Shown in pieces: positions 13,494 to 49,464 of a stretch of DNA of 64,000 bases. The translations under genes were made by a program, and so were the position numbers. How positions within the stretch are numbered: the stretch's first letter is position 1; every line of letters begins with the position of its first letter. The notes beneath the pieces are model-generated. The model ran no database searches and had not been told where the DNA came from. It saw only the letters and a program-made list of their open reading frames with translations. The stretch is from a virus, in IMG/VR virus record IMGVR_UViG_3300025000_002059, positions 23,960 through 87,959 of that record, one strand, 5' to 3'.

Positions 13494-13542
13494 CCACATT
13501 TACAGTTTAACTCTGAATGATGATTATTGCAATACATATATC
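13494..13542 (-). promoter_or_regulatory. Repeated early promoter cassette, copy 7
   Basis: CCACATTTACAGTTTAACTCTGAATGATGATTATTGCAATACATATATCA. Confidence 0.7.
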
Positions 13543-13621
13543 AAATAAAATATTATCCAATTATGAACATTGCCGTACTAGATGTAGTACGATATAATAG
13601 AAGCAGGGGAGGGACAACAAC

Positions 13622-13861
13622 ATGAGGATTTGCATTGATAATACGGATGTTGAGTACAACCTTACCATTGGAAAGGAATACGAGGGAATTGATGACGATG
13701 GGCAATTAGTTAATGTCATAGACGATACAGGATTCATGGAGACTTATGTCGTAGAACGATTTGAGAAAAAGGGAAAGAACGATTTTATAAAAGGGGATGT
13801 TAAAAATAGAAATCACAGAAAAACACCTGAGAACAGTTTGCAAAATAGGACAAGAACATGA
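13622..13861 (+). CDS. Hypothetical protein
   Basis: TTGCCG..TATAAT promoter and GGGAGG RBS upstream. Confidence 0.55.
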   Translation: MRICIDNTDVEYNLTIGKEYEGIDDDGQLVNVIDDTGFMETYVVERFEKKGKNDFIKGDVKNRNHRKTPENSLQNRTRT

Positions 13862-15022: not shown

Positions 15023-15067
15023 AAAAAGCATTCCTGCGCCATTCAATCGGCTAAGGAATGCTTTTTT
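15023..15067. terminator. Bidirectional terminator
   Basis: AAAAAAGCATTCCT ... AGGAATGCTTTTTT. Confidence 0.75.
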
Positions 15068-15340
15068 AATGGAAAAGACTAGGTATATTATTACCAACTA
15101 CTTGTCCGAAACATGTGATATAATGGCGGAAAGAAGAATAAAGCGAAAACCTCCAAGGACGGTAATCCTTGAAGGCTTTCTGGTCGAAGCATTGCCACCA
15201 GCAACGCTAAGATTTCAATATGGGAAATTGATACTTTTATTATATCATTTCATGGTACAAAGTATCAAGGTAAATATTTGGAATTTTAAGCTGTCTGGCG
15301 AATGCGTTAGATAGCTTTTTATATTTGGAGGAAAGATGAG

Positions 15341-17246: not shown

Positions 17247-17542
17247 TGCTAGTTAATGGAACTCCGGCTATTGCAGATATTAAGAGTCAGTGTTCAATTA
17301 TTCCCGGATTTGAATTTAACTACATCGCTTACAAGGGGAAAGTATTGTGGAGCACGGTATCGGCATCGCTTGATGATTATTTCATTTATCTTTATGACGG
17401 ACCAAATTATAAAAATGGGTGGGATCCATATACGGTAGCCTGCGTAGATGAACACGGTGATCTGTTTTACTACGGTCGCTGGACGAAATTAAAAAATGCA
17501 CTTGCATGGCTTGCGGATCCAAACATGCCAGAAAGGGACTAA
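17243..17542 (+). CDS. Hypothetical protein
   Basis: Translationally coupled ORF. Confidence 0.55.
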   Translation: MMLVNGTPAIADIKSQCSIIPGFEFNYIAYKGKVLWSTVSASLDDYFIYLYDGPNYKNGWDPYTVACVDEHGDLFYYGRWTKLKNALAWLADPNMPERD

Positions 17543-17547
17543 AGCAA

Positions 17548-18309
17548 TTGGAGACACTAGCGGTAATAAACCAAAAGGGCGGCGTAGCCAAAACTACAAC
17601 GAGCGTGAATATGGCGGCCATAATAGCCGCCATGGGATTCAAGACATTACTTATTGATGTGGATCCGCAAGCTAATCTTTCCCAATCCTTGGGCATTGTT
17701 GCCTTTGATATGGGAACACCTAATCTTTTCGAGGATCCGAAAATAACACTTAGCAAGTGCGTTAATGAAACAAGCATAACGAAATTATCCATTATTCCAT
17801 CGGACCTATCACTAGCACAAGTTGAATGGGAACTTTTGAAAACATTTAAAGGCACCAATACTTCTATTCTGCGAGACAAGATCAAGGCAAGTGAGGAAGA
17901 ATTTGATTATTGCATTATCGACTGCCCGCCAAGCTTAGGAATTTTCAGCCTTAATGCGCTCATTGCAGCGGACCGTGTGCTTATCCCGGTTGGTCTTGAT
18001 CCGTTCGGATTGATTGGAATAAAGTATCTAGTGAGCACGATCACTGATATCAGAATGAGTATAAACAAGCATCTCAAAATTCTGGGCATTGCACGGACCA
18101 TGTGGGATATGCGGCAGAGACTTGGACGAGAAATCAGCGAAAGTATGGAAAAGGATTATCCGGGAAAAGTCCTTGAGACGATTATAAAAATGAATGTAAG
18201 CGTCAAGGAAAGTGCTGTTGCCCAAATGCCACTGGTCATTTATGAGCCAAATGCTCCGGCTGCGCTGCAATACATTCAATTAACGAATGAAGTGTTACAG
18301 AGATGGTGA
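17548..18309 (+). CDS. parA: ParA/Soj partition ATPase
   Basis: NQKGGVAKTT deviant Walker A, DVDPQANL, IIDCPPSLG; TTG start after AAGGG. Confidence 0.93.
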   Translation: METLAVINQKGGVAKTTTSVNMAAIIAAMGFKTLLIDVDPQANLSQSLGIVAFDMGTPNLFEDPKITLSKCVNETSITKLSIIPSDLSLAQVEWELLKTFKGTNTSILRDKIKASEEEFDYCIIDCPPSLGIFSLNALIAADRVLIPVGLDPFGLIGIKYLVSTITDIRMSINKHLKILGIARTMWDMRQRLGREISESMEKDYPGKVLETIIKMNVSVKESAVAQMPLVIYEPNAPAALQYIQLTNEVLQRW

Positions 18310-18584
18310 GAAAACAGGGTAGGCCAAATATTCAAGCAATGCTGGAAGGAATCGATCTGGATAATAAGGAAGTACAGGAAGAAAAGCCAGATAAGTCAGA
18401 GGTAGAAGCGATAGCTGAACCGGACTTAAATGAAAAACTAAAGCGATGCTATGTAGTAACAGGATTTCATCTTGAAAAAATAATGCTTCTAAAGACCAAA
18501 AAATACAGAAAATATGATATGAGCGAAATTGTCTGTATGGCGATTGATTCATTTTTTGAAAAAGAAATGAACGGAGAGAAGTAA
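18303..18584 (+). CDS. Small putative centromere-binding adaptor (type Ib ParB/RHH-like)
   Basis: Overlaps the parA stop; acidic flexible N-terminus; C-terminal MSEIV..AIDSFF RHH-like helix. Confidence 0.55.
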   Translation: MVRKQGRPNIQAMLEGIDLDNKEVQEEKPDKSEVEAIAEPDLNEKLKRCYVVTGFHLEKIMLLKTKKYRKYDMSEIVCMAIDSFFEKEMNGEK

Positions 18585-18590
18585 TACAAT

Positions 18591-19349
18591 ATGATTGAAG
18601 AAATAGATGACCAAATATTTACCATGACAAGTGATCTCTCGGATGAAGAACTGGTCGATTTTGCAGCTGGGATATTTAAGAGCAATTGGAAAACATCATA
18701 CGATTACCAGAAAACGGATCCTATTATATTTCAAAGCTTGCCGATCGATGGGAAAATACTTAAGCATACCGATTTTTTGTCTTCGGCTGTTTATATATCA
18801 GAACTAACACAAAAGGCATTATCCTATAGATGGAATGAGATAGGAGGTCTAGCCGGGAAAGAACTGAAGGAGTGGGATGCCAATGGCGGCCTTTGTATTT
18901 ATCTATCCATTTTGCATTTTTGTTTACTGCTGGAAAGCAAAGCCGTAAAAGAGAATGAACTATGCTTAGTCCAAGGATTTTATAGGCATCCAACACACGG
19001 AATACTCAGTATATTCTCAAATCTGGGAACTCAATGCGGAGTTCATGCCTTTATAAGCGTTCAGGGAGCGGTTGTTGATTTTTCGATACAGCAAGAAGCA
19101 TCAACGTTCGAATTTGGAGAAAAAGAATTCATTATTGGCGATATCCCAGATGAGATGGAGATGGTCGGCTGGACAGAAGGAAAGCATTTAGTCAAGCAAT
19201 ATGCGCGTGAGATAGCCCGGAGCAGCGGACTTAATTATTTTGAATGGATTGAACAGCACAAAATCAATTCATATAAACTTGCAAGCAAAGAACTTAACAA
19301 AGAGCTTGTAAGGCTTAAAAGATTATATAAAAGTTTGGAGGATGAATGA
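18591..19349 (+). CDS. Hypothetical protein, possible transglutaminase/papain-like Cys-His-Asp fold
   Basis: GGLCIYLS ... GVHAFISVQGAVVDFS; directly upstream of the Tas-like gene. Confidence 0.5.
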   Translation: MIEEIDDQIFTMTSDLSDEELVDFAAGIFKSNWKTSYDYQKTDPIIFQSLPIDGKILKHTDFLSSAVYISELTQKALSYRWNEIGGLAGKELKEWDANGGLCIYLSILHFCLLLESKAVKENELCLVQGFYRHPTHGILSIFSNLGTQCGVHAFISVQGAVVDFSIQQEASTFEFGEKEFIIGDIPDEMEMVGWTEGKHLVKQYAREIARSSGLNYFEWIEQHKINSYKLASKELNKELVRLKRLYKSLEDE

Positions 19350-19352
19350 GCG

Positions 19353-20408
19353 ATGGCTAGGAAAAAGAATGAAGAAGAAGTCACCCTAACCAATCAGGAA
19401 ATGATTCAAAAAGAAGAGCGCCATAGAAAAGATTTAGAAAATAAACTAAAGGCATCGGAAGCATCAGCGGAAGATCAGAAACAATTTACTCCCTTGGTCA
19501 AACTTACTAAGGATTTAAGAAGCGCAAGCCGGACATTGAATCCACAAGAAGCCCGGTATCTAGTGGACAGGTACTACCAAATCCAACAATACCGGACCAG
19601 CGCCAAGAATCAGATTAGAGCATCGGAAAGCGAAGAACCAAATGAAGTTATTGTCTGGTTTGCAGAGAACTTTGAGGAACTGGAGAAGAACATAAAAAAG
19701 GCGCTGGATGCTTATACGAGTAGTCATCCGGTCGGAGCTTGGGCCAAATCGGTGATCGGCGTAGGTCCGACATTCGCAGCCGGGCTTCTAGCGCACATTG
19801 ATGCGAAGAAAGCACCAACAGCCGGAGCCGTGTGGAGTTACGCAGGATATAATCCAAGTGTTGAATGGTTAAAAGGTCAGAAGCGTCCATGGAATGCTGA
19901 TTTAAAAAAACTATGTTATCTCATAGGTGAATCATTTGTAAAGGTTTCCAATAATCCTAAAGATATCTATGGTAAATTATATCGCCAAAGAAAAGATCAG
20001 GAGATAGCGAAGAATATAGCGGGAGAATTTGCGGAACAAGCAATATCAAAGCTGGAGAAATTCAAGATAGGTAAAGATACTGATGCTTACATATGGTATG
20101 CAGGATGTCTGACTGAAGATAAAGCCAGAGCAATTCTTCTGGGTGAAAAATCCGGATCAGCCAAAAGTCTAGCGGGAGAAAAGGATTCTGGGATTCGTAT
20201 GCTTCCACCAGCACATATCAACGAGCGGTCCAAGCGATATGCTGTTAAAATATTCCTAGCCCATTTTCATGAGGTCTTATTTGAATATGAATTTGGGACC
20301 AAGCCACCAAATCCATATGCTATCTCAATCCTGGGACATGCACATAAGCTGGAAGTTCCAAACTATGAAGTATTTAAAAAAGCGATGGAAGAAGATCCGT
20401 CACTATAG
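19353..20408 (+). CDS. IS110/Nop-domain RNA-binding protein lacking a nuclease domain (TIGR-associated TasA-like)
   Basis: Coiled coil (LVDRYYQIQQYRTSAKNQIR), then SVIGVGPTFAAGLL..I, VWSYAGYNP, WNADLKKLCYLIGESFVK and HINERSKRYAVKIFL; no DEDD/RuvC N-terminus; abuts a repeat array. Confidence 0.85.
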   Translation: MARKKNEEEVTLTNQEMIQKEERHRKDLENKLKASEASAEDQKQFTPLVKLTKDLRSASRTLNPQEARYLVDRYYQIQQYRTSAKNQIRASESEEPNEVIVWFAENFEELEKNIKKALDAYTSSHPVGAWAKSVIGVGPTFAAGLLAHIDAKKAPTAGAVWSYAGYNPSVEWLKGQKRPWNADLKKLCYLIGESFVKVSNNPKDIYGKLYRQRKDQEIAKNIAGEFAEQAISKLEKFKIGKDTDAYIWYAGCLTEDKARAILLGEKSGSAKSLAGEKDSGIRMLPPAHINERSKRYAVKIFLAHFHEVLFEYEFGTKPPNPYAISILGHAHKLEVPNYEVFKKAMEEDPSL

Positions 20409-22292
20409 CCAAGTTACTTTGATTTTAAACAAAGCCATTGAGCGAACCATCAGACAAGAGAGTATCAACAATAGAAGAGTGAGCCAACAAGCGTGAGCTA
20501 ATTGCATCCCATAAAAGCGAGCCACTAACCATGAATTATGCAACGAAAGAAAGCGAGCCATAGCAACAGATTACCCCATCTCGACGAGAGCGAGCCAATG
20601 GTCTATGAAAGCAGAATTGACCATCAAACAAGAGTGAACCGTGTGCAAAGATTGTATCAATTAGGAGAAGTGAGTCATTAGATTAGAATAGCACCATATC
20701 CGCAAAGCGAGCCGTTAGATCAGAAATTTATTTTATTCATTCCCATTGAGTGAGCCAAGAGCCAAGGTATACGAAAGCACCAACAACAACGAGCGAGTCA
20801 TCCGATATGAAATTAGATACAAATGCGTTGAGCGATCCAAAATGAATTGTAGCGAAACAAAGCGAACCATGGGTATGGAGAAATACCATTTATCTCCGAG
20901 TGAACCAAAAAATTAGAATAAATCGCCAAAGTAGAGTGAGCCATATGAAATAGATTAAATCACACTCTAAGAGCGAGCCAAGCTAACTTAATATAAAATG
21001 AACGAACCAGAATGCTTGATTGGGACAAAAATAACGAGTGAGCCACTAAAGGGAATTATAATATTTAATCAAAAAATGCAATGAGCGAAACAAAATATTT
21101 TGATCGAACCATTATAAAGGAGATATTCCGGGGATAACGAGTGAGTCATGCAGGAAAGCGTGATGGGATGTTGGCTTAGAAGCAGCCATGGCTGGAAGGC
21201 TGATTGCTTTATGCAATCCATCTAAGGAGTGGGGCGATGGCTATTTGTGACTTGATTGTTTTTCCACATTATTAGCAATCTGAACCCGATGAGGGAAAAT
21301 GAATGTGGTAGTGTTACGATGATACCGATGCATTTGTAGTGACAAGGTAACATAAAAGCTGCAAATGAAGGAAAGCGTATAGCTTGGGAGTTGCTTTAGA
21401 GTTACACTTGGTTATCCCTTTTGGCGTAATAGCACACCATCACATGAGTCATGCGGAATGATTGAACGAAATAGTGAGTGAACCATCAATAATGACCGGA
21501 ACATTGTGTCAGAGTGAGCCACGATATAAGAATAGCAACATTAATAGTTGGAGCGAACCAATCAAGCCGAAAATTAACATTCCCTATGAGTGAGTCAGGT
21601 ATATTTATGAAAAATATGAACGAGTCGAAGGAAGTAAGGGTACCAATCTCATAGAGCGAGCCATAAGGAATAATGGCAACATCACAGGAAAGCGAACCAC
21701 TAATAGCGAGTTACATCATTATACGAGAGTGAACCGTCAGAAGCGAAACTAAGTATCATATATTCAGAGTGAATCGGGATATTGGAGAGCACCACACATA
21801 CTGAGTGAATCAGGACTATGGAAAGCAGCAGATAAGCCGAGTGAGCCGAATAATGGGATAGCACCACGCTGGTTAAGCGAGCCATTGAAGGAAATAGGAT
21901 CAGAAATGCAGAGCGAGCCGCAGGATGTAAAAGCACAATAAAAAGAGAGCGAGCCAGACCAACCGAAAGCAGTATTGAGCGAGAGCGAGCCAGAGGAAAA
22001 AGATTAATTCATTGCAGGACAACGAGCCATAACTACAGATTAACGACAAGATTATAAGAGCGAACCAAAATCACGCTTAAATAAAATTGAAACATTAGCG
22101 AGTGAGTCATAGGACTTGATTGAATCACCCCATCGGAGCGATCCATATTAAGCGAGAATAACCAGCGTAGGTTGAGTGAGCCAAATGGAAGCGAGAGTAC
22201 CAATTGCATAGAGTGAGCCAGAACTGGTGATTAAAATCATTAATGCGAGAGCGAACCATGGCAAGAGAGGACCACAAATATAGAGTGATTCA
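20407..22292 (+). repeat. TIGR-type dual-spacer guide-RNA array 1 (~43 units), interrupted by a structured RNA
   Basis: ~36-nt period: edge AG(T/C)GA(G/A)CCA, 9-nt spacer, loop e.g. AGAG(T/C)ACCA, 9-nt spacer. Confidence 0.9.
21160..21443 (+). ncRNA. Structured RNA mimicking the 23S rRNA L11-binding domain (H43/H44), with two inserted helical domains
   Basis: GGATGTTGGCTTAGAAGCAGCCAT ... CATCTAAGGAGT ... GCGTAATAGCACAC, closed by GTGATGG/CCATCAC; flanked by TGAGTCATGC direct repeats. Confidence 0.75.
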
Positions 22293-22309
22293 AAAGCGAG
22301 GAATTATCG

Positions 22310-22594
22310 ATGAGAGATTTAATCAGTTATGATGAGATGCTAGAAAACAAGGATAAGCTAAAAACCATATTCCTCGATTTCAAGGCACGGTATTATGCTT
22401 TGGGCAAGAAGCAGAATGGAAAATTTAAAACGAGTGATCTTGACCGATTAATCCGGGAGACGATCGCAGAATTAAAAGGCAAAGAAAAACTTATTGCCGA
22501 AGGATTTCTGGAATTCGTGCTGGGATTTTTATTCAACAGCTCGTGGGATTCTACGAAGGCTTTTAATTCTGTAGATAAAATGTTTAACTGGTAG
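22310..22594 (+). CDS. Hypothetical protein (cargo between arrays 1 and 2)
   Basis: GAGG RBS right after the final edge repeat. Confidence 0.6.
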   Translation: MRDLISYDEMLENKDKLKTIFLDFKARYYALGKKQNGKFKTSDLDRLIRETIAELKGKEKLIAEGFLEFVLGFLFNSSWDSTKAFNSVDKMFNW

Positions 22595-22601
22595 ATAAAT
22601 T

Positions 22602-23030
22602 TAGCCAAAACAGATGATAGTATCACGGCATCCAAGCGAACCATTGACTATCGCCGGAAAGCGAGCCAATTCACACGACTAAAAACAAGATACTGAAGCG
22701 AACCAGAGGAAAAGACTATTTCATTACAGGAAAGTGAGCCGGACCAATTGATAAATACATTAAATGAGAGTGAGCCACGGTTAGGGACAATTTCAATTAT
22801 TAGAAGCGAGTCAAACAGATAAGATTTCCATTTAAAGAGAGCGATCCATTTCAGATGACAGTAACAGCCTTTACGAGTGAGCCAGAAAATAGGATAGCAT
22901 CATTATGCGAAAGCGAGCCAAGTGCATGAAGATATAAACCATTAAACGAGATCGAACCAGTAGACAAGGAAAGTATCATGATCATAAAGTGAGCCAAACA
23001 CCATGATTAGTAACATTATGGACAAGCGGA
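22602..23030 (+). repeat. TIGR-type array 2 (~12 units)
   Basis: Same edge/loop periodicity as array 1. Confidence 0.88.
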
Positions 23031-23057
23031 CTAATACACCCTTGGGAGGTGGAACGA

Positions 23058-23495
23058 TTGGACCACGAAATATCATACCCAGAAAAGAAATGTCCCGGAT
23101 GCGGAAATGATAATCTACTGGATGGACCGCGAGGTGGACTATCTCAAAATGTCTTATGCCCGGAATGCCAAAGAGAATGGAACTATGGACCATTTGGGTA
23201 TGAAGAAATCAGCCCGGCACGAACATACTTATACCGAGTTGTGTCTCCAAAACTTGATCTGCGGATCATCCCAGTAGGATGCAAGCCGGGATGCTGTGGG
23301 GAAACATATCCATGCATTGATGAGGTAGCCATGATTATAGAACAGGGCAATCTTGCCTTTATGATTCACGGCGAGCACGTTAAGGAGCAGTTAGAGAAAC
23401 TAGAATACAGAATTGATGTAACGAGTCATAACAACATACCGATTGGAATGTATATATCTGAAAAGGGATCAAAAAGCGTGTACGAAAGATTTTAG
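23058..23495 (+). CDS. Zn-ribbon hypothetical protein (cargo between arrays 2 and 3)
   Basis: CPGC...GPRGGLSQNVLCPEC; GGAGGT RBS and TTG start. Confidence 0.6.
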   Translation: MDHEISYPEKKCPGCGNDNLLDGPRGGLSQNVLCPECQREWNYGPFGYEEISPARTYLYRVVSPKLDLRIIPVGCKPGCCGETYPCIDEVAMIIEQGNLAFMIHGEHVKEQLEKLEYRIDVTSHNNIPIGMYISEKGSKSVYERF

Positions 23496-23712
23496 CCAGC
23501 ACATGAGAAAATCCAGAGATCGTGAGCGAATCAATTGATGAAAAAAGCAACATTACTCCGGAGTGAACCGATTGAAATGATGATCCATTGACCAAGAGTG
23601 AGCCAATATCTATGAGCCACCCAATTTAAAGTAGCGAGCCATCCCAAAGGATTTTTCAATTCCACGGAAGCGAGCCATTATAAGGCGATATTTCAGTCCA
23701 CGGGAGCGATCC
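23494..23712 (+). repeat. TIGR-type array 3 (~6 units)
   Basis: Begins at TAGCCA, overlapping the upstream stop codon. Confidence 0.88.
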
Positions 23713-23752
23713 AATTCACCAGTCTAATATTTCTTGGAGTGAAAATATTTTT

Positions 23753-24127
23753 ATGGATAGACTGCGAAATGAGCGAAAGGCCAACGGTTTATGTGCTCAA
23801 TGTGGAACTAAACTTGATAGGATTGGGAGATATTGCAAAAAATGCAATACTTCAGGGAATATTAATAAGCACAAACGTTGCCTAAAGCTTTATGCAATCG
23901 GTTTATGTACTACTTGCGCTGAGCCATTAGACAGAGATGGTTGGTTTTGCTCAAGGTGTGCAAACAACTTAAAACTTAGGGCAAGAGTTAGAGACACAGA
24001 AAGAAGATTAAAAGGATTATGCGTTCAGTGTGGCGCTTGGGCAGATGGGTATTCCTATTGCCAACGCTGCAGGGATATGAGGATGGAGAGATATCACTCA
24101 AAGAAAAGGTCCATTCACCAAGAGTGA
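23753..24127 (+). CDS. Multi-Zn-finger protein (three GLCxxC...CxxC repeats), cargo between arrays 3 and 4
   Basis: Repeated GLC..C.......YC..C. Confidence 0.7.
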   Translation: MDRLRNERKANGLCAQCGTKLDRIGRYCKKCNTSGNINKHKRCLKLYAIGLCTTCAEPLDRDGWFCSRCANNLKLRARVRDTERRLKGLCVQCGAWADGYSYCQRCRDMRMERYHSKKRSIHQE

Positions 24128-24349
24128 GTGAGCCAATATTGGATTTTTACATTAGAGAAAGAGCGAATCAAACAGATATTATTTTTCAGATACCAAGAGT
24201 GAGCCAATTATGATGACAGAAACAACCCAAGAAAGCGAGTCAATGAATACGAACTTTATCAACAGATATGAAGCGAGCCATAACAATGAAGTATAACCAT
24301 CATCCAAGAGCGAGCCTAAGCAATTGATCACCCCACACTCACTGAGCGA
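24108..24349 (+). repeat. TIGR-type array 4 (~6-7 units)
   Basis: Same periodicity; first unit overlaps the 3' end of the Zn-finger gene. Confidence 0.85.
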
Positions 24350-24692
24350 TTGAAGGAGTAAAATAAAATGGATGCCCTACTATTCCTGATGGCTTTAGGG
24401 AATTTCATAGCATTTCATAGAGCAATGAACGAGCGCGAACTTAACCTTACATATTTATTTTCAGCTCTAGTATTCTTCATGCTACTTATAATTTAAGGAG
24501 GTGATGATACTTGGGATGGCTAAAAACGAAAACTCATAGAGATGGGAGCGTAAGTTATTTCAGCGACCAAGAAAATAAATGGATTGAGTATGTTAGGGAA
24601 ATCCCCCAGAAGGAATTAAGTAAGATGACAAAGGAAGAGCAGCAGAGAATGCTCAAATTCTTAAGTAAACACAACTGAATGGAAGAAGGTAT

Positions 24693-24971
24693 TTGATGGC
24701 GAAATACTTCAGACATGAAAACGGAATTACCGTCAGCGAATTTCAAATGTTAATCATTTTCTTAAACCGGAGCTGCGATTATCAGATTGCACTCCGGATC
24801 GTTCGTGATGAATTAAGCGCCAAGAAGGAAAAGAATCGATACTGGATTGTTGGCCATGAGCAAGCATGGAATTATTTTCATATAAATTTAAGCGAATCAT
24901 TGAAGAGAAGAAACATCGGCAGTATGGATGAATTACTGGAGAGCGCAAAAGAAAACTTAAGGAAGCGATAA
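24693..24971 (+). CDS. Hypothetical protein
   Basis: ORF with RBS. Confidence 0.5.
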   Translation: MMAKYFRHENGITVSEFQMLIIFLNRSCDYQIALRIVRDELSAKKEKNRYWIVGHEQAWNYFHINLSESLKRRNIGSMDELLESAKENLRKR

Positions 24972-24985
24972 GGAGAAAGATAAAA

Positions 24986-25330
24986 ATGTTTTTTAAGCTT
25001 TGCAATCATAGAGAAATTGATCCAGATGAAAGACTTAGTGTTATTATTGGAAGTGGATCGGATGATGAATTTGAAACTCACAATCCTTTAAATTTATTTG
25101 GGGCAATTATTAATGATTATGATCCGGATTCAGGTGTTCCGATTATTCCTCTTGTCGTTGGACAAATTAGTCCGGGAATGTTGATGTCTTATCTATCGGC
25201 CATGACAACAATTGCTGTCGAGATGTTAAAGGATACAGATATACCGAGAGAAGTATTAAAGGAATTATTGCAAAGAGCTGTTGATGAAGGACTGAATGGA
25301 AAAATTGTTCCGTGCAAGTGCCAGAACTAG
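24986..25330 (+). CDS. Hypothetical protein
   Basis: AAGGAG RBS. Confidence 0.55.
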   Translation: MFFKLCNHREIDPDERLSVIIGSGSDDEFETHNPLNLFGAIINDYDPDSGVPIIPLVVGQISPGMLMSYLSAMTTIAVEMLKDTDIPREVLKELLQRAVDEGLNGKIVPCKCQN

Positions 25331-25521
25331 CCGATAGAGATATCGGCTTTTATTTTGTTCAAATATGAATGTAACAAAATATGTGAATTGTTACATTGGG
25401 GGCTTAAACATGGATGTGGCAAGGATGGTAATAATTGAATGTAACTTAGGGCGTAGAAATGATACATGGAATGTAGTATAATGAAGGACAAGCTTAATAA
25501 AAAGAGAGGAATTAAAAATTC

Positions 25522-26064
25522 ATGAATGTTCAACCAATTAGAGATATTTCCAAAATAGAAGAATTAAAAAATGAACTCCTTAAGATCAGTTACCGAGATT
25601 ATATGATTTTCTCATTTGGAATAAATACTGGATTAAGAATAAGTGATATCTTGAAGTTAAAAGTAAATGATATTAAGGGCAAAAGCCATGTTTCTATCAA
25701 GGAACAAAAAACGGGCAAAACAAAAAAGTTTAAAATACAAAGTCAATTTAAACCGGAAGTTGATAGGTACATACATGGAATGAAAATGACTAATTATTTA
25801 TTTAGAAGTAGAAAAGGAGTAAATAAACCAATTAGTAGGATTCAGTATTATAGGGTGTTAAGGAACGCTGCTGCGCCAATTGGGATTACAGAAATTGGAA
25901 CACATACATTGAGAAAAACATTTGGATATTTTCATTATAAGAAAAACAAGGATGTTGCTATGCTGCAAGAAATATTTAATCATTCTGGACCGAGTGTGAC
26001 CTTGAGATATATAGGGATAAACCAAGAGGAAATAGATGAGTCGATGGAAGGTATGTATTTATGA
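25522..26064 (+). CDS. Short tyrosine recombinase (catalytic domain only)
   Basis: NTGLRISDIL, HTLRKTFGY, FNHS...TLRYIG; no arm-binding domain. Confidence 0.92.
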   Translation: MNVQPIRDISKIEELKNELLKISYRDYMIFSFGINTGLRISDILKLKVNDIKGKSHVSIKEQKTGKTKKFKIQSQFKPEVDRYIHGMKMTNYLFRSRKGVNKPISRIQYYRVLRNAAAPIGITEIGTHTLRKTFGYFHYKKNKDVAMLQEIFNHSGPSVTLRYIGINQEEIDESMEGMYL

Positions 26065-34030: not shown

Positions 34031-34458
34031 ATCCATAAATCCATATAAGAATATATCGATACATCCATAAAGGAATATTTGCTGAAGATTCTATTTAATA
34101 GACAGAATGAAAGAATTGGATTTTGTTTATAAGTTTAGGATTTTATGTAAATATTCCATTTTTTAGTGATTGCGTATCGATATCCATATATCAATATATC
34201 CATATATCCATACGGAGCATAATTATCGTAAGAATCAATTCCTGATCGCGACGAGTAGCCTAACATTTTCTGTCAAATTGTCTAAGAGTGTATTCCTATC
34301 CATATATCAATACATCCATATATCAATACAAGAGGGACTTATGGACCAAATATGTAATTTAATGGATTCTTTCAAATTGTAGGCAAACAGAATATTCTCA
34401 AATCTATACATCAATAAATCCATATTTCCATAAATCAATATATCGATAAATCAATACA
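34010..34458. repeat. Four clusters of 8-bp tandem repeats ATC(C/A/G)ATA(T/A/C); centromere (parS)-like
   Basis: Clusters near 34010-34068, 34176-34212, 34297-34330 and 34406-34458. Confidence 0.65.
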
Positions 34459-34750
34459 GACCATTTTCGTGAGATCACGAAAATGATAAAAATATAACCA
34501 TATAAGTTATAAACGGCAATTATAACTCATACGGTTATATTTTCGATTTTATGGATATTTATGGAAATTATCAGGGGTAATAATTAGAACATCGCTGGCA
34601 GACTTCCTCATCAAAATTTTCCCGGTAACAGAATTTATCTTGGTTATATCGACAAACGAGAAAAAATTCTTTTCCAGTTAAGCAGAGTGGGGATCCGCAG
34701 CCAAGCGGAAAATCATCGCACCCATCGCACATTTCATTTTCACATCCCTA

Positions 34751-34759
34751 TGCTATAAT
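34751..34759 (+). promoter_or_regulatory. Extended -10 promoter for array 5
   Basis: TGCTATAAT about 20 nt upstream of the first AGCCA. Confidence 0.6.
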
Positions 34760-34779
34760 AATTACATAGGACAAGTATA

Positions 34780-37116
34780 AGCCATGAACTGCGATTAAAT
34801 CAATTATTGTAAGCGAGCCAAGAATAGAGATTTTACAGAATTTTGAGCGAGTCAACTAGGTAGATTTTTTCAAATGTCCAAAGCGAACCAAAGCGCTTGA
34901 GAGCGCCAAAATTGGCAAGTGAACCATCAGTAGCAATAGTGCCAAACTATCAGAGTGAGCCAAAGTATTTGAGTTAAAATCATAAAAAGGTAAGTGAGTC
35001 ATCGAACCAGATTATAAACATTGAAGAATAGCGAACCATTTTTGATTAAGAGAGTGAGTCAAAGTTTCCGATCGTACCTAAGTAAGGGAGCGAGTCCAAA
35101 GGTTTTTCAGTGTACCAGAAAGAGGGAGCGAGTCATACCAAACAGAAAAAAGAACGAACCACGAACATAGACTTATTCATTTTACGAGAGTGAGCTAATA
35201 ATGCCGATAGCAACAAAAACAGTGAACGAGCCAAGAATACTGAGAGTACCATATTTCGAGAGCGAGCCAGTAAGATGGGTATTTCCAAAAAAGAGAAGCG
35301 AGCCAAGAACTCTGATATCCCAGACCAAGCAAGCGAGTCAAGGTTTCCGACCATACCCAAACGTAAGGGATCGAGTCAAGGTTTCCGAGTGCACCGAAAT
35401 TAGGGATCGAGACATGATAGCTGATTTAATCGTAAATAATGATCGTTTCAATCCACGCACCAGAAATGAGGTGCGACAATAAATATAAGTGAGCCAGCTG
35501 CATTGAGATTACCAATGTAGAGAAGCGAACCAACGAATGTGATTAGTTTACAATTGAAGAGTGAACCACACGATAAGATGTCACCGTATGTTTGGAGTGA
35601 GCCAAAGAATTAAAAAAACATTATATGCAAGCGAACCAAAAACCTTAGACAATATCAAACCCCAAGAGTGAGTCAAGCTTTCCGAGAGGTCCAGAACGGA
35701 TGAACGAATCATGTTTCGTGAGAGCACCAGAAACATGGAGTGAGCCAAGAACACTGAGATACCAATTGCGAGAGAGCGAGCCAATAACTACGATCGATCA
35801 CTGAAAAGAAGCGAACCAGTGTTGCTGGATTTGAGCAAAGTCTCTGAGTGAGTCATGGAGACAGGATAAGATCCAAATATGTCATGACTTTCTATTAGTC
35901 GTGTGGGATTGAAACATAGCTGCTAAACGAGCCAAAATATAGAATAGCAACATTAATAGTGGAGCGAACCATGGCGAATGATAATGACAATTTCCATTGA
36001 GTGAACCATTAGGAATGAGAGAACCAGTTAAATGAGTGAACCATGTATCGTGAAAAATTTCAAGCGTTACGAGTGAGCCAACAGAGTTAATCATTACAAT
36101 TGTTCAGAGCGAATCATTAAACTTGATTGTATCAGAGGTTAGAAGTGAATCAATGGGACGGAGAGTACCACAAACCATTAGTGAGCCATTCAATCGGAGA
36201 GCACCGTAAAGAACGAATCATAAGCGGCGAAAGAATCAGAACCTCGAAGTGAACCATGTATTGTGATATTTCATAATCTGTGAAGTGAGCCATCATTAGG
36301 GATTGTTTCAATTATTAGGAGTGAACCACTTTTTGTGAGAAACACAGCGATATAAGGGTGAGCCAAGAACACCGACAGTCAACAAAGCCACAAAGCGAAC
36401 CAATGTTGGAGAGAGCACCGTGCCATTCGAGTGAACCGATGTCGCACCATTTTTAAACAGAGCGAGCCAATGACGATGGAGAGCACCATGATCACGGAGC
36501 GAACCACCATTAGGGATAGTAACATATTTTTGGAGTGAGCCGAGGATACTGACATTTAAACCAGATGGAAAGAGTGAGCCAAAGTATCCGAATACAACAA
36601 CCTTCTAGAGCGAGTCACCCCACAAGAGCACACCCATGTCCGTTAAGCGATCCATCAAGGCATAGAGCACCATCAAGCATGAGTGAATCGACATTCGTGA
36701 GATACCCAATACTTGTGAGTGAGCCAGCATATCTGAATATTTCAATAGTCGTGAGTGAGCCACTGCCGCAAGATAATACCATGTCCATAGAGCGATCCAC
36801 TACGCAAGATAGCACCACAACTGTAGAGTGAACCATCGGGGAGAATTAATCATCGGTTAGAAGTGAGTCATTAAACTTGATAGCACCATATCCGCAAATC
36901 GAGCCAATCATGCTGAATATTTCAATGAGCCAGAGTGATCCAATTATTTAGATCGAATCAATAAATCTGAGTGACCAAAAATGAACAAAGAAGTCTTACA
37001 ATATGGCAACATATGTGATAATGTATGGATAAGCCAACGCTGCTGGCGAACTTGACTAGAGTACCAGATGCCAGCAAAACGAGTCGACAATGATGAGTGA
37101 CCAACAATAATGAGCG
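34780..37116 (+). repeat. TIGR-type array 5, stand-alone (~60 units, degenerate 3' end)
   Basis: Same edge/loop repeats, e.g. AGCCA AGAATACTG AGAGTACCA TATTTCGAG AGCG. Confidence 0.9.
35445..35477 (-). CRISPR. Solitary type I-C CRISPR repeat embedded in array 5
   Basis: Minus strand GTCGCACCTCATTTCTGGTGCGTGGATTGAAAC; single copy; no cas genes in window. Confidence 0.75.
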
Positions 37117-37325
37117 TAAAAATTGAACAAAAAAATGACCTTCGCGGAGTTTGCACCTCCCGAAAGTCGTGGCTAAAGACCAAACTCTTTAGACTTGAAA
37201 TTTAAATCTAAGGACGGAACCCTTAGACTTAAGTACTTAATTTGGATTAAGTATAACAAAGGATACTCAACGAATCAAGGGGGACAAGGGTAGTATCATT
37301 TGTAATATTTTCAAATAAAAGTAAA

Positions 37326-37362
37326 GTCGGGTCAGTATCTTTAGCTGGCCCGGCTTTTTTTG
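37326..37362 (+). terminator. Intrinsic terminator downstream of array 5
   Basis: GTCGGGTCAG ... CTGGCCCGGC followed by a T-run. Confidence 0.65.
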
Positions 37363-37475
37363 TTTCCCAAAAATTACAAGGTGAAAGAATTGGAGGGACA
37401 ATAGTTTTCTATCTATCGAGCGTCCGTCAGATTGTATATAATTTAGTTACTCACCTAAAAAATGGGGGGAGAGTC

Positions 37476-46875: not shown

Positions 46876-46941
46876 CGAATACTTAAGTATACCATACGAT
46901 ATAATTAAGTATTAGTGGAAATAAAAGGAGTTAATAAATTG

Positions 46942-47898
46942 ATGATCGCAGATAAGACGATTTTAATCACAGGTGGTACAGGAACTTTTGGTCAAAAATA
47001 TACAGAATGGCTAATAAAACATAAGGGAGTAAAACGAATTATTATATTTTCTAGAGATGAATTAAAGCAACATGATATGAAACAAAAATTTAAAGATGAG
47101 CGAATACGTTATTTTATAGGTGATGTAAGAAATCAAAATCGATTAGAAAGGGCATTCAATGAAGTAGATATTGTAATTCATGCTGCAGCACTAAAGCAAG
47201 TCCCAGCTTGCGAGTATAATCCTTGGGAAGCAGTCCAAACAAATGTAATCGGAACACAGAATATAATCGAGGCATCTATTAATAAAAAAGTTAGTAGATG
47301 TCTTTTGCTCAGTACAGATAAAAGCTGCATGGCTTCAAACACATATGGAAAAACAAAAGCTCTAGCCGAATCTTTATTTATAAACGGCAATGCATATGCG
47401 AGCGGGACCAAGACCAGATTCAGTTGTGTTCGTTATGGAAACGTTACCGGATCGCGGGGAAGCATAATCCCTTTGATGGAAAAGCTTCGGGACAGCGGAC
47501 AGCCGATCACTATCACCGATGATCGGATGACAAGATTCTGGCTGGAACCTGAAAGGGCATGTGAAATAGTTTCGTCAGCAATTCAGATGATGTATGGCGG
47601 GGAAATATTTATACCCAAAATACCCAGTGTTCGAATTTTAGATTTGAAGCAGGCTATAGCGCCAGAGTCAGAGATTAAATTTATTGGGATCCGGGAAGGC
47701 GAAAAACTGCATGAGTCCTTAATAAGCGAGCAGGAAGCACCGATGACGATCGATGCCGGGGAGTTCTATGTTATAGAAAGCCCGCAAGATTGGTTCCAGA
47801 GAGGACGCATAAAAGGAATTCATTTTGAAAAGGAAAGATATGTAAGTAATGAAAATGAAAACTTTCTTAGCATTGAAGAAATTCAGGCTGGGATTTAG
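46942..47898 (+). CDS. pseB: UDP-GlcNAc 4,6-dehydratase (inverting)
   Basis: GGTGTFG, FSRDELKQ, HAAALKQVPACEYNP, RYGNV.GSRGS, GIREGEKLHE. Confidence 0.9.
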   Translation: MIADKTILITGGTGTFGQKYTEWLIKHKGVKRIIIFSRDELKQHDMKQKFKDERIRYFIGDVRNQNRLERAFNEVDIVIHAAALKQVPACEYNPWEAVQTNVIGTQNIIEASINKKVSRCLLLSTDKSCMASNTYGKTKALAESLFINGNAYASGTKTRFSCVRYGNVTGSRGSIIPLMEKLRDSGQPITITDDRMTRFWLEPERACEIVSSAIQMMYGGEIFIPKIPSVRILDLKQAIAPESEIKFIGIREGEKLHESLISEQEAPMTIDAGEFYVIESPQDWFQRGRIKGIHFEKERYVSNENENFLSIEEIQAGI

Positions 47899-48257
47899 TC
47901 AACCGAGCTGAGAGCACCATGAGAAGCGAACGAACCATGGAACAAGAAAAAAGCGTTATGTAGAAGTGAGCCAAATTTAAAGAGTGTACCAATGAACATG
48001 AACGAACCAAAAGGTCGGACTGAAACAATTCAAAAGAGTGAGCTATCTTGAATGGATTGAGACATTGAATGGGAGCGAACCAAAATCATTAAAAAATCAT
48101 GTTTAGTGAGTGAGCCAAACGAATGGAGAGCACCGCATTATAAGAGCGAACCATATAGATGGAGAATCCCAAATAGCAAGAAGTGAGCCAATACTCCTGA
48201 GAGTACCACATTCCGAGAGCGAGCCATGACGATGAGATAAACATTAGAAGGTGAGCG
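47897..48257 (+). repeat. TIGR-type array 6 (10 units) between pseB and the ParB-MT-A70 gene
   Basis: e.g. AGTGAGCCA ATACTCCTG AGAGTACCA CATTCCGAG AGCGAGCCA. Confidence 0.9.
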
Positions 48258-48258
48258 T

Positions 48259-49464
48259 TTGATTTTGAATCAAATTATAATTGATGAAGAATTTAAAGGT
48301 TTGTGCCCGGCGCTTTCAGCAGAAGAGCGGAAGCAACTGGAGAAAAACATCATCGAGGAAGGATGCCGGGATGCCTTAGTAATCTGGAAAAACATAATCA
48401 TTGATGGGCATAATCGATATGAAATTTGTATTCGAAATTCTATTGAATATAAGACGGTCGAAATGGATTTTCCAGATAGGGAATCAGTAATTGATTGGAT
48501 AATTAATAATCAATTAGGGAGAAGGAATTTAACGAAGGAAGCCCAGAGCTATTTAAGAGGTTTGCAATATTCGAGGGAAAAGAAGAAACCGGGAGCACCC
48601 GAAGGAAACAAAAATGCAGAAAAACAAATAGATAATAATTTATCAATTGTTTCTGGTAATTCCACTGCTCAAAGACTAGCGGAACAACACAATGTCACCC
48701 ATCAAACGATAAAAAATGATGAAAAATATGCCAAAGCAATCGATACCATAACCGAGGAATTAGGCGAAGATGTAAAGGAAAAAATACTTAGCCATGAAAT
48801 TAATGTTACCAAGAAAGACATAGCACAACTAGCAAAGTGGGAATCGGAACAACGACAAAAAGTTATTGCCATGATCGTAAAACAAGAAGCAAAAGGTGTC
48901 AGGGATGCGATTATTAGACTAAATAAAGAAAAAGCCAAGGCATTAAATGAGACGCCAATCGCCACACCTAAAGGAAAATATAAAGTCATAGAAATTGATC
49001 CACCATGGAAAATGAATGGAGAAGAAGCAAAATCACAAGTTATGCAATATCCACTAATGGACATGGAAGAACTTAAAAAATTAAAAAGTGTTATTGATGA
49101 GATGGCAGACGAAAACTGTCATCTTTATTTATGGGCAATAAATCCCATGCTACCCGAAGCTTTTGAACTTATGGAAGTATGGGGTTTTAAATATAAAACA
49201 TGTATTACATGGATTAAATCTAATGGATTTGGGACTGGTCATTATTTTAGAGGACAGACCGAGCATGTTTTATTTGGTATAAGAGGAAAATTAAATACTT
49301 TGGAAAATGATCAAGCAAACTATTTAGAAGCACCAAGAACAAAACATTCAGAAAAACCGGAAAAATTTTATGAAATAGTTGAACGAATGTCTCCTGAACC
49401 AAGGATTCGTTTATTTGCAAGAGCACAGAGAGATGGCTGGGTGTCATGGGGGAATGAGATATGA
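48259..49464 (+). CDS. ParB-like N-domain plus MT-A70 adenine methyltransferase
   Basis: IIDGHNRYEIC, NQLGRRNL; IDPPW, HLYLW, HSEKP. Confidence 0.9.
   Translation: MILNQIIIDEEFKGLCPALSAEERKQLEKNIIEEGCRDALVIWKNIIIDGHNRYEICIRNSIEYKTVEMDFPDRESVIDWIINNQLGRRNLTKEAQSYLRGLQYSREKKKPGAPEGNKNAEKQIDNNLSIVSGNSTAQRLAEQHNVTHQTIKNDEKYAKAIDTITEELGEDVKEKILSHEINVTKKDIAQLAKWESEQRQKVIAMIVKQEAKGVRDAIIRLNKEKAKALNETPIATPKGKYKVIEIDPPWKMNGEEAKSQVMQYPLMDMEELKKLKSVIDEMADENCHLYLWAINPMLPEAFELMEVWGFKYKTCITWIKSNGFGTGHYFRGQTEHVLFGIRGKLNTLENDQANYLEAPRTKHSEKPEKFYEIVERMSPEPRIRLFARAQRDGWVSWGNEI

Follow-up and report, generated by a model that had tools for sequence, protein, structure and literature searches.

Guide RNA arrays and protein-coding genes alternate at one locus of a groundwater phage of about 88 kb, and several genes there end within a repeat of the adjoining array. 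How are guides and messages separated in such an arrangement, and how did the genes come to stand between the guides? We analyzed a stretch of 64,000 nucleotides (nt), called the window below, which covers bases 23960-87959 of the IMG/VR virus record IMGVR_UViG_3300025000_002059, a sequence of 87,959 bp with direct terminal repeats. An earlier note made from the letters of this DNA had offered two answers: either guide cassettes are embedded in a polycistronic mRNA and their processing also segments the message, or the edge repeats of the arrays act as recombination sites for gene capture in an integron-like way. The first answer is the best supported one, and of the second only an insertion hot spot is supported. 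The system is of the known TIGR-TasA kind in a variant, gene-interleaved layout. With a probability of roughly 65%, its sequence indicates that one operon transcript is segmented by the protein Tas, with the array being a permissive, recombination-prone insertion site.

A TIGR-TasA system in a gene-interleaved layout

The tasA gene (19353-20408, + strand) encodes a nuclease-less Nop-domain TIGR-associated protein (Tas) of 351 amino acids (aa) with the residues Tyr322 and His329. A phmmer search of the PDB with Tas yielded 9mty (E-value 1.4e-12, query residues 25-216) and the TasH entry 21kl (7.1e-8), and Pfam Transposase_20 was matched with 17.6 bits, which is under its cutoff. No HNH or RuvC family was found in Tas by Pfam at E ≤ 0.1; furthermore, an alignment with SpTasH revealed, beyond low similarity, no counterpart to the N-terminal HNH region. 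Tyr322 and His329 are spaced 7 residues apart, are invariant in an alignment of four sequences and align with Tyr289 and His296 of SpTasH. Tyr289 and His296 were reported as metal-independent processing residues for pre-tigRNA (PMC13421893), and Xu et al. (2026 preprint, 10.64898/2026.09.09.750476) described the Tyr/His processing pair as a conserved feature of dual-repeat systems. Dual-repeat TIGR arrays were described with 5'- and 3'-truncated edges at their ends, and tasParB-tasA operons with 10-nt repeats and 8-nt spacers (Faure et al. 2025, PMC12045711). Nuclease-less Nop-domain Tas, 10-nt repeats, 8-nt spacers, truncated end edges and location on a phage are all shared with the locus studied here; judged from sequence, locus and protein are a dual-repeat TIGR-TasA system of the kind published in 2025.

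A search for the edge pattern GAGYGARCCA with at most one mismatch gave 120 matches, 119 of them on the + strand, as compared to 8.7 expected from shuffled sequences; none of 100 shuffles reached 120. Cutting at the edges produced 140 segments (127 of 30-45 nt, 105 of 35-37 nt, 73 of exactly 36 nt), and the unit consensus is RCCA-N8-GA-N6-CA-N8-GAGYGA. In total, about 127 units are distributed over three array loci, and a check of the whole record placed all arrays of the genome within the window. Published TIGR arrays hold "most often 5 to 15" units (Faure et al. 2025, PMC12045711).

The tas locus lies on the + strand throughout and consists of tas followed by about 63 guide units of 36 nt in five blocks, a split caused by three small genes and a structured RNA-like element of 280 nt. 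The order read earlier (tas, array 1, open reading frame (ORF) 22310, array 2, Zn-ribbon ORF, array 3, Zn-finger ORF, array 4, small ORFs, all on a single strand) was confirmed by the coordinates, with the refinement that array 1 is itself interrupted by the 280-nt non-repeat element. The first part of array 1 (20408-21148) comprises 20 segments and the second part (21446-22292) 23 segments, ending with GAGTGA and then TTCA; the element is located between them at 21162-21441. The cargo gene ORF 22310 (22310-22594) encodes 94 aa. Array 2 with 12 segments extends over 22602-23028 (alternatively from 22604) and opens with a TAGCCA that is not the stop of ORF 22310. The cargo ORF with an N-terminal Zn-ribbon follows at 23058-23495 (alternative GTG start at 23049), then array 3 with seven units (23495-23742), the Zn-finger cargo ORF (23753-24127; double zinc-ribbon, 124 aa) and array 4 (24110-24349, or 24132-24349 between the genes), which consists of a half-unit in the end of this ORF and six units. 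Four small ORFs of 42, 55, 92 and 114 aa (24368-25330) come after the array here and in all relatives compared below.

TIGR arrays were described upstream and downstream of tas, between tasParB and tasA, and inside tas. Here, the array is interrupted by three protein genes other than tas and by a structured RNA, unlike the descriptions given by Faure et al. (PMC12045711), and a word search in the available text of Faure et al. and of the Xu preprint gave no mention of other genes within arrays; supplementary loci of these papers may include such cases. Overlap of guide units with coding sequence was described by Xu et al. (10.64898/2026.09.09.750476), who also raise the question whether guides and mRNA share one transcript. 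In their cases it is tas that overlaps with units, chiefly in systems of the stem-loop type; at the locus studied here, the blocks alternate with other genes, and overlap with units is limited to stop codons or a short tail. Surveys looking for one compact array beside tas will count too few guides and overlook the genes and RNAs embedded in such arrays.

Block ends and a proposed transcription unit

The earlier note had stated that arrays open with a half edge repeat into which, in three cases, the upstream TAG stop is fused. All three fusions were found: TAGCCA at 20406-20411, where the tas stop overlaps the 5'-truncated edge repeat of the first unit; TAGCCA at 23493, the stop of the Zn-ribbon ORF; and TAGTCA at 47896, the stop of a 327-aa ORF. 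Likewise, arrays end with the other edge half just before a ribosome-binding site or start codon, as had been claimed. The ends are GAGTGA (22283-22288), AAGCGG (about 23023-23028), GAGTGA (23737-23742), GAGCGA (24344-24349) and GTGAGCG (about 48251-48257); the next start lies 10-29 nt past the half edge, with a Shine-Dalgarno-like purine run between or overlapping. For instance, the final GGAGTGA of array 3 stands 10 nt before the ATG of the Zn-finger ORF, and array 4 ends 18 nt before the ATG at 24368. The last codons of the Zn-finger ORF (ORF 23753), which had been described as an array unit, are indeed array-derived but amount to half a unit: TCC ATT CAC CAA GAG TGA (24110-24127), with the TGA of GAGTGA as stop codon, agrees at 17 of 18 bases with 23584-23601, where the second half of another unit lies, and GCCAATAT follows in both places.

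Truncated edges were present at every block end. A terminator follows the stand-alone large array only, while the blocks at the tas locus run directly into genes. An assembly artefact as the cause of this layout was considered and rejected: contigs from two studies bridge the junctions, and those of the second study join the Zn-ribbon gene, array 3 and the Zn-finger gene with 0 differences (X5 record 16, 23119-23899). The layout is real.

Where would a transcript of the locus begin and end? Matches to the extended -10 element TGNTATAAT on the + strand were located at 15116, 28915 and 34751 only, hence none between 15116 and 28915. The match at 15116-15124, a candidate extended -10 element (TGATATAAT) identified by consensus only, is the last one on this strand upstream of the tas operon. 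Between 16000 and 27000, 25 promoter-like sites were counted as compared to 31.9 in shuffled sequences, so that they are not above expectation. No strong terminator was detected on the + strand between tas and 25329; a terminator-like hairpin at 25329-25348, with an 8-bp stem followed by TTTATTTT, stands right after the last small ORF and is the sole strong (8-pair) one after tas on this strand. The stand-alone large array (34751-37357, + strand; 60 segments, units 34781-36974) carries TGCTATAAT at 34751 and a 14-bp terminator at 37323 (37323-37357). With its promoter-like site and terminator it corresponds to the canonical published layout, from which the tas-proximal array differs by having no terminator of its own. 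The blocks at the tas locus thus look embedded in an operon of about 10 kb.

The following sequence of events is proposed. One precursor would be transcribed, beginning upstream of parA and extending to the terminator at 25329. TasA would bind each 36-nt unit, and Tyr322/His329 would cut the full edges between GAGYGA and RCCA. Cutting would release tigRNAs and, as a by-product, divide the message into one mRNA for tas, a monocistronic one for each of the three cargo genes, a distal mRNA and the structured RNA. The outermost unit of each block, which has its own half edge only, would be bound but left uncut on its outer side and would stay on the mRNA; the resulting mRNAs would thus keep one terminal guide unit at their 5' and 3' ends. 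Half-edge units remaining attached in this manner would explain why stop codons and ribosome-binding sites lie flush against half edges. A stronger form of this proposal, which we consider possible but rather doubtful, is that guide maturation by TasA doubles as mRNA processing of its own operon, with the attached and bound half-edge units acting as end caps and translational gates. If it held, the 3' untranslated region would be exactly one guide unit from the stop codon, and a gate would exist where a half edge overlaps the ribosome-binding site. The array would then be a platform for expression and release of small anti-host genes and decoy RNAs in addition to a store of guides, and its repeats would make it the landing place of new cargo.

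Embedded small structured RNAs set the ends of neighbouring RNAs in the tRNA punctuation of mitochondrial transcripts and in long non-coding RNAs ended by small nucleolar RNAs, and Tas is a box C/D-type Nop-domain protein. The array-split operon may resemble these cases by analogy only. If Tas cutting shapes neighbouring mRNAs, guide biogenesis would be coupled to gene expression, which is not described for CRISPR; the clade examined here allows native-context expression and maturation of TIGR arrays to be tested.

The part of the earlier note which placed guides in a polycistronic mRNA agrees with the use of one strand, the tight junctions, the lack of internal signals and the conserved Tyr322/His329; co-transcription and cleavage themselves we infer from the sequence, as a look-up of sequencing runs containing the locus listed no RNA run. 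Several observations speak against the segmentation of one transcript. The consensus used in the promoter scan is of the E. coli type, which may not be that of the host; internal promoters are possible. Processing was reported to need full edge repeats (Faure et al. 2025, PMC12045711), and the fate of terminal half-edge units in the proposed scheme is therefore a guess. Fusion of stop codon and repeat is not universal: the TAG of ORF 22310 at 22592 precedes the next TAGCCA (22602) by 10 nt. Additionally, 10 tas genes with a downstream array were compared, excluding G004, which has a truncated tas ORF, and L006, for which no array was found. In six of them (the window, G003, L005, L007, L008, L010), the tas stop overlaps the first unit or lies flush with it; in two (G001, L011) it lies 1-3 nt from a full edge, and in the remaining two (G002, L009) it is 17-21 nt away.

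The nature of the fused triplet has to be weighed in the same way. Of 17 array starts in five genomes, 14 show a TAG or TAA triplet that overlaps RCCA or stands directly before it. All five promoter-driven large arrays are among these 14, and in these five no ORF of at least 35 aa ends at the triplet; only 5 of the 14 triplets act as stop of an ORF of this length. Because promoter-driven arrays have it too, the triplet may belong to the array start more than to translation. It looks like a part of the array-start signature which is used as stop by abutting genes, and not like a translation device. Finally, distant relatives with 39-54% Tas identity (L005, L007, L009, L010) have plain single arrays; the system therefore does not require interleaving to function.

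These plain arrays also speak for an alternative in which arrays and genes are not functionally coupled at all, i.e., the cargo genes have their own promoters, the arrays fill intergenic space, and the flush junctions reflect compaction of the phage genome. Phage genes commonly overlap or abut, weak promoter-like matches (9 of 12) exist on the + strand at 22961, 23814, 24153 and 24185, and the Zn-finger family was also found in an ordinary non-array context (L071). However, promoter-like sites are not enriched over shuffled sequences, the extended -10 type of the stand-alone array was not found in 19-25.3 kb, and no terminator separates arrays from genes. Moreover, Tas with an intact Tyr/His pair would cut any transcript running through full edges, wherever that transcript starts. 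Lack of coupling thus appears unlikely to us, and segmentation of one transcript by Tas is retained as the preferred reading.

Gain, loss and movement of cargo in a collinear array

Four IMG/VR phages (G001-G004) with Tas proteins of 77-79% identity were compared with the window over their whole length. A tree of 17 shared proteins (60-85% identity) had the topology (G003, window, (G002, (G001, G004))), with the window grouped with G003. No close relatives were found among named phage records by megablast; by protein, only distant Tas-like matches in Salicola and Mycobacterium phages were obtained. All four relatives have three array loci. After tas, G001 and G004 carry a single unbroken array (33 and 37 edge repeats), and the array of G002 is interrupted by the RNA element only. 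In G003, 8 edge repeats are followed by a 9.8-kb gene block, units, the RNA element, units, a remnant of ORF 22310, and again units.

Units of the second part of array 1, of array 2 and of array 4 in the window match the single array of G002 in the same order across both insertion points (window/G002 pairs 22255/71290, 22702/71399, 22881/71868, 22917/71940, 22956/71977, 24203/72050). This collinearity with one unbroken array argues against growth of the arrays into existing intergenic gaps, the reverse of genes entering the array. Such growth could be suspected at the third array, since all five genomes have an array directly after the homologue of the gene ending at 47898, which looks like a fixed intergenic resident, and the expansion mode of TIGR arrays is not known according to the discussion of Faure et al. 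(PMC12045711). At the tas locus, however, the Zn-finger ORF lost its native tail to an array half-unit, and a truncated gene remnant is kept in the G003 array. Growth into gaps is very improbable to us.

The Zn-finger gene provided the clearest view of an insertion. L077, a 3.4-kb metagenome contig from the same kind of sample, is 85-98% identical in nucleotide sequence in the shared parts and has the same tas-distal order as the window up to array 3. Its arrays 3 and 4 are contiguous, and two of its units are identical to window units 24203 and 24277; behind the arrays stands the Zn-finger gene with a full-length tail, 7 nt before the homologue of the ORF starting at 24368 (o24368). Homology of the Zn-finger gene between L077 and the window begins right after the half edge (at about 23745) and stops at about 24107 within the tail, past which an array half-unit replaces the tail in the window. 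Contigs of run X3 contained the L077-type joints 23713>24173 and 24316>23748 as well as the form of the window itself, so that both arrangements of the Zn-finger gene coexist in the sampled population; at the joint 24316>23748, the 32 intervening letters are identical to the last L077 unit. A single contig joint which skips the Zn-finger gene is weak evidence by itself and was counted since L077 independently has the same arrangement. The Zn-finger ORF has Pfam DZR as its sole family match (4.4e-8, 33.6 bits against a cutoff of 27.3) and five homologues with conserved Cys pairs, one of which (P0004, 94% identical) has a different C-terminal tail. No match to the gene was found in G001-G004.

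For ORF 22310, three full-length homologues with 84-97% identity were identified. A 95% identical one occupies the same place in L077, and the remnant in the G003 array consists of the last 32 codons of a homologue, ends with TGG TAG T and is followed by a full edge repeat. IMG/VR contained no relatives of ORF 22310, and neither this ORF nor the Zn-ribbon ORF has a usable family in Pfam, PHROGs or ESM Atlas. The Zn-ribbon gene has homologues in all four relatives, where the order is array, o24368 homologue, Zn-ribbon homologue, i.e., the gene lies outside the array; therefore, it has changed place in the window and is now within the array. Its stop fusion TAGCCA is also present in L077, where the homologue (1329-1853) reaches 174 aa because about 29 residues are duplicated internally. 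In G002 and G003 the gene is broken into two ORFs, and only its C-terminal part was found in G001 and G004.

The RNA-like element is 90.7% identical to its G002 counterpart over 280 nt and 79.8% identical to that of G003. It is more conserved than the proteins shared with the relatives, and compensatory changes are visible. A 10-bp direct repeat, TGAGTCATGC, flanks it at 21142-21151 and 21445-21454. Its 3' 20-mer occurs in 36 IMG/VR contigs; the family is defined by conserved 5' and 3' strands, and its carriers are in many cases contigs of more than 100 kb, often with the element beside tRNA genes. Rfam gave no match to the element at E ≤ 1. The element may be similar to the part of 23S rRNA that forms the L11/GTPase-centre region, with an insert of variable sequence, and literature listings contained nothing relevant on a phage mimic of the 23S GTPase centre.

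Comparison of related phages had been suggested by the earlier note, with the expectation of cargo breakpoints exactly at edge repeats if genes were captured there. Cargo does vary in presence and position, and breakpoints lie in or next to edges, at no one fixed position. Direct repeats flanking the insertions, with the edge included, measure about 6, 10 and 26-30 bp and agree with recombination between repeats or with microhomology; a dedicated machinery for capture is not evident. As judged from these comparisons, cargo is gained, lost and moved inside a collinear array, which behaves as a permissive, recombination-prone site.

Small same-strand genes between repeated elements, expressed from one upstream promoter and varying in content, are typical of class 1-type integrons. 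The tas locus shares with them the small genes on one strand, the repeats between these genes and the cargo varying among relatives, and it could be thought that a dedicated recombinase inserts and excises cassettes at the edge repeats. Cargo content and position vary even within one sample, each of the three cargo genes has its left end directly after GAGYGA, short direct repeats including the edge flank insertions (10 bp at the RNA element, about 26-30 bp at the Zn-finger gene), and a tyrosine recombinase gene is located 1.2 kb downstream. The defining parts of integrons were not found, however. No IntI-type integrase or attI was recognized, a search of the three cargo junction regions gave no attC-like inverted repeats at the boundaries, and the repeats are guide RNAs. 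The sole nearby recombinase (25522-26064) has 180 aa with Phage_integrase as its one domain, and relatives with unbroken arrays possess it as well; by this domain content and occurrence, it was not classed as IntI-type. The right end of the Zn-finger insertion lies mid-unit inside the tail of the gene itself, so that the breakpoint is not fixed, the ORF 22310 remnant of G003 is a truncation rather than a clean excision, and the flanking repeats differ in length. We give integron-like capture very little credence.

Insertion into a permissive array is preferred. In the five genomes and the closer variant L077, single units turn over, blocks change place, and genes are gained and lost while the array stays collinear, which points to change of the array by recombination among repeats and not by a dedicated adaptation machine. 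Spacer pairs are often common to phages whose core proteins are only 60-85% identical, and some units occur in duplicate in two arrays of a genome, such as 21518 with 35931, 22774 with 36289, and 35230 with 48187. Shared and duplicated units suggest conserved targets and shuffling of units by recombination. A search for self-targeting in four geometries with gaps of 0-10 nt gave no perfect spacer-pair match in the phage's own genome. One-mismatch matches were near shuffled levels, with a slight excess of 4 matches at one combination of geometry and gap, which was not repeated in G001 or G002.

Neighbouring genes and the other arrays

Upstream of tas, a ParA-type ATPase gene (17506-18309, + strand; Pfam AAA_31 1.5e-50, CbiA 6.3e-21) belongs to the same string of genes and is kept at this place in all four relatives. 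An ORF of 252 aa (18591-19349, + strand) is located directly upstream of tas, at the position of the published TasParB, and is conserved in the relatives; it has no Pfam or PHROG match and is a TasParB candidate by position alone. The window (17506-20408) and all four relatives have the series of ParA-type ATPase, 93-aa ORF and 252-aa ORF before tasA. The window contains no tRNA or tmRNA, and Rfam gave no match at E ≤ 1 in 19000-26000.

The third array (47896-48257, + strand) has 11 segments. It is located between a Polysacc_synt_2-type sugar dehydratase gene, whose stop TAG lies within TAGTCA, and an MT-A70 methyltransferase gene starting at 48259 (region 46915-49464). Each of the four relatives likewise has an array after its homologue of the dehydratase gene ending at 47898, and in three of them an extra ORF of 87-90 aa comes after this array.

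The promoter and array start of the stand-alone large array are kept in all four relatives. Within this array, non-unit inserts at 35445-35477 (- strand) and 35881-35915 (+ strand) may resemble single CRISPR repeats (ending ATTGAAAC); Rfam gave only sub-threshold, chance-level matches and no CRISPR repeat family in 34300-37400. G003 carries a different putative one after its large array at about 15040-15075. Additionally, the large array harbors a conserved ORF of 71-72 aa in G002 (81884-82099 of the reverse complement) and G003 (13508-13726), absent from the window, which starts right after a full edge repeat plus AAAGGAG.

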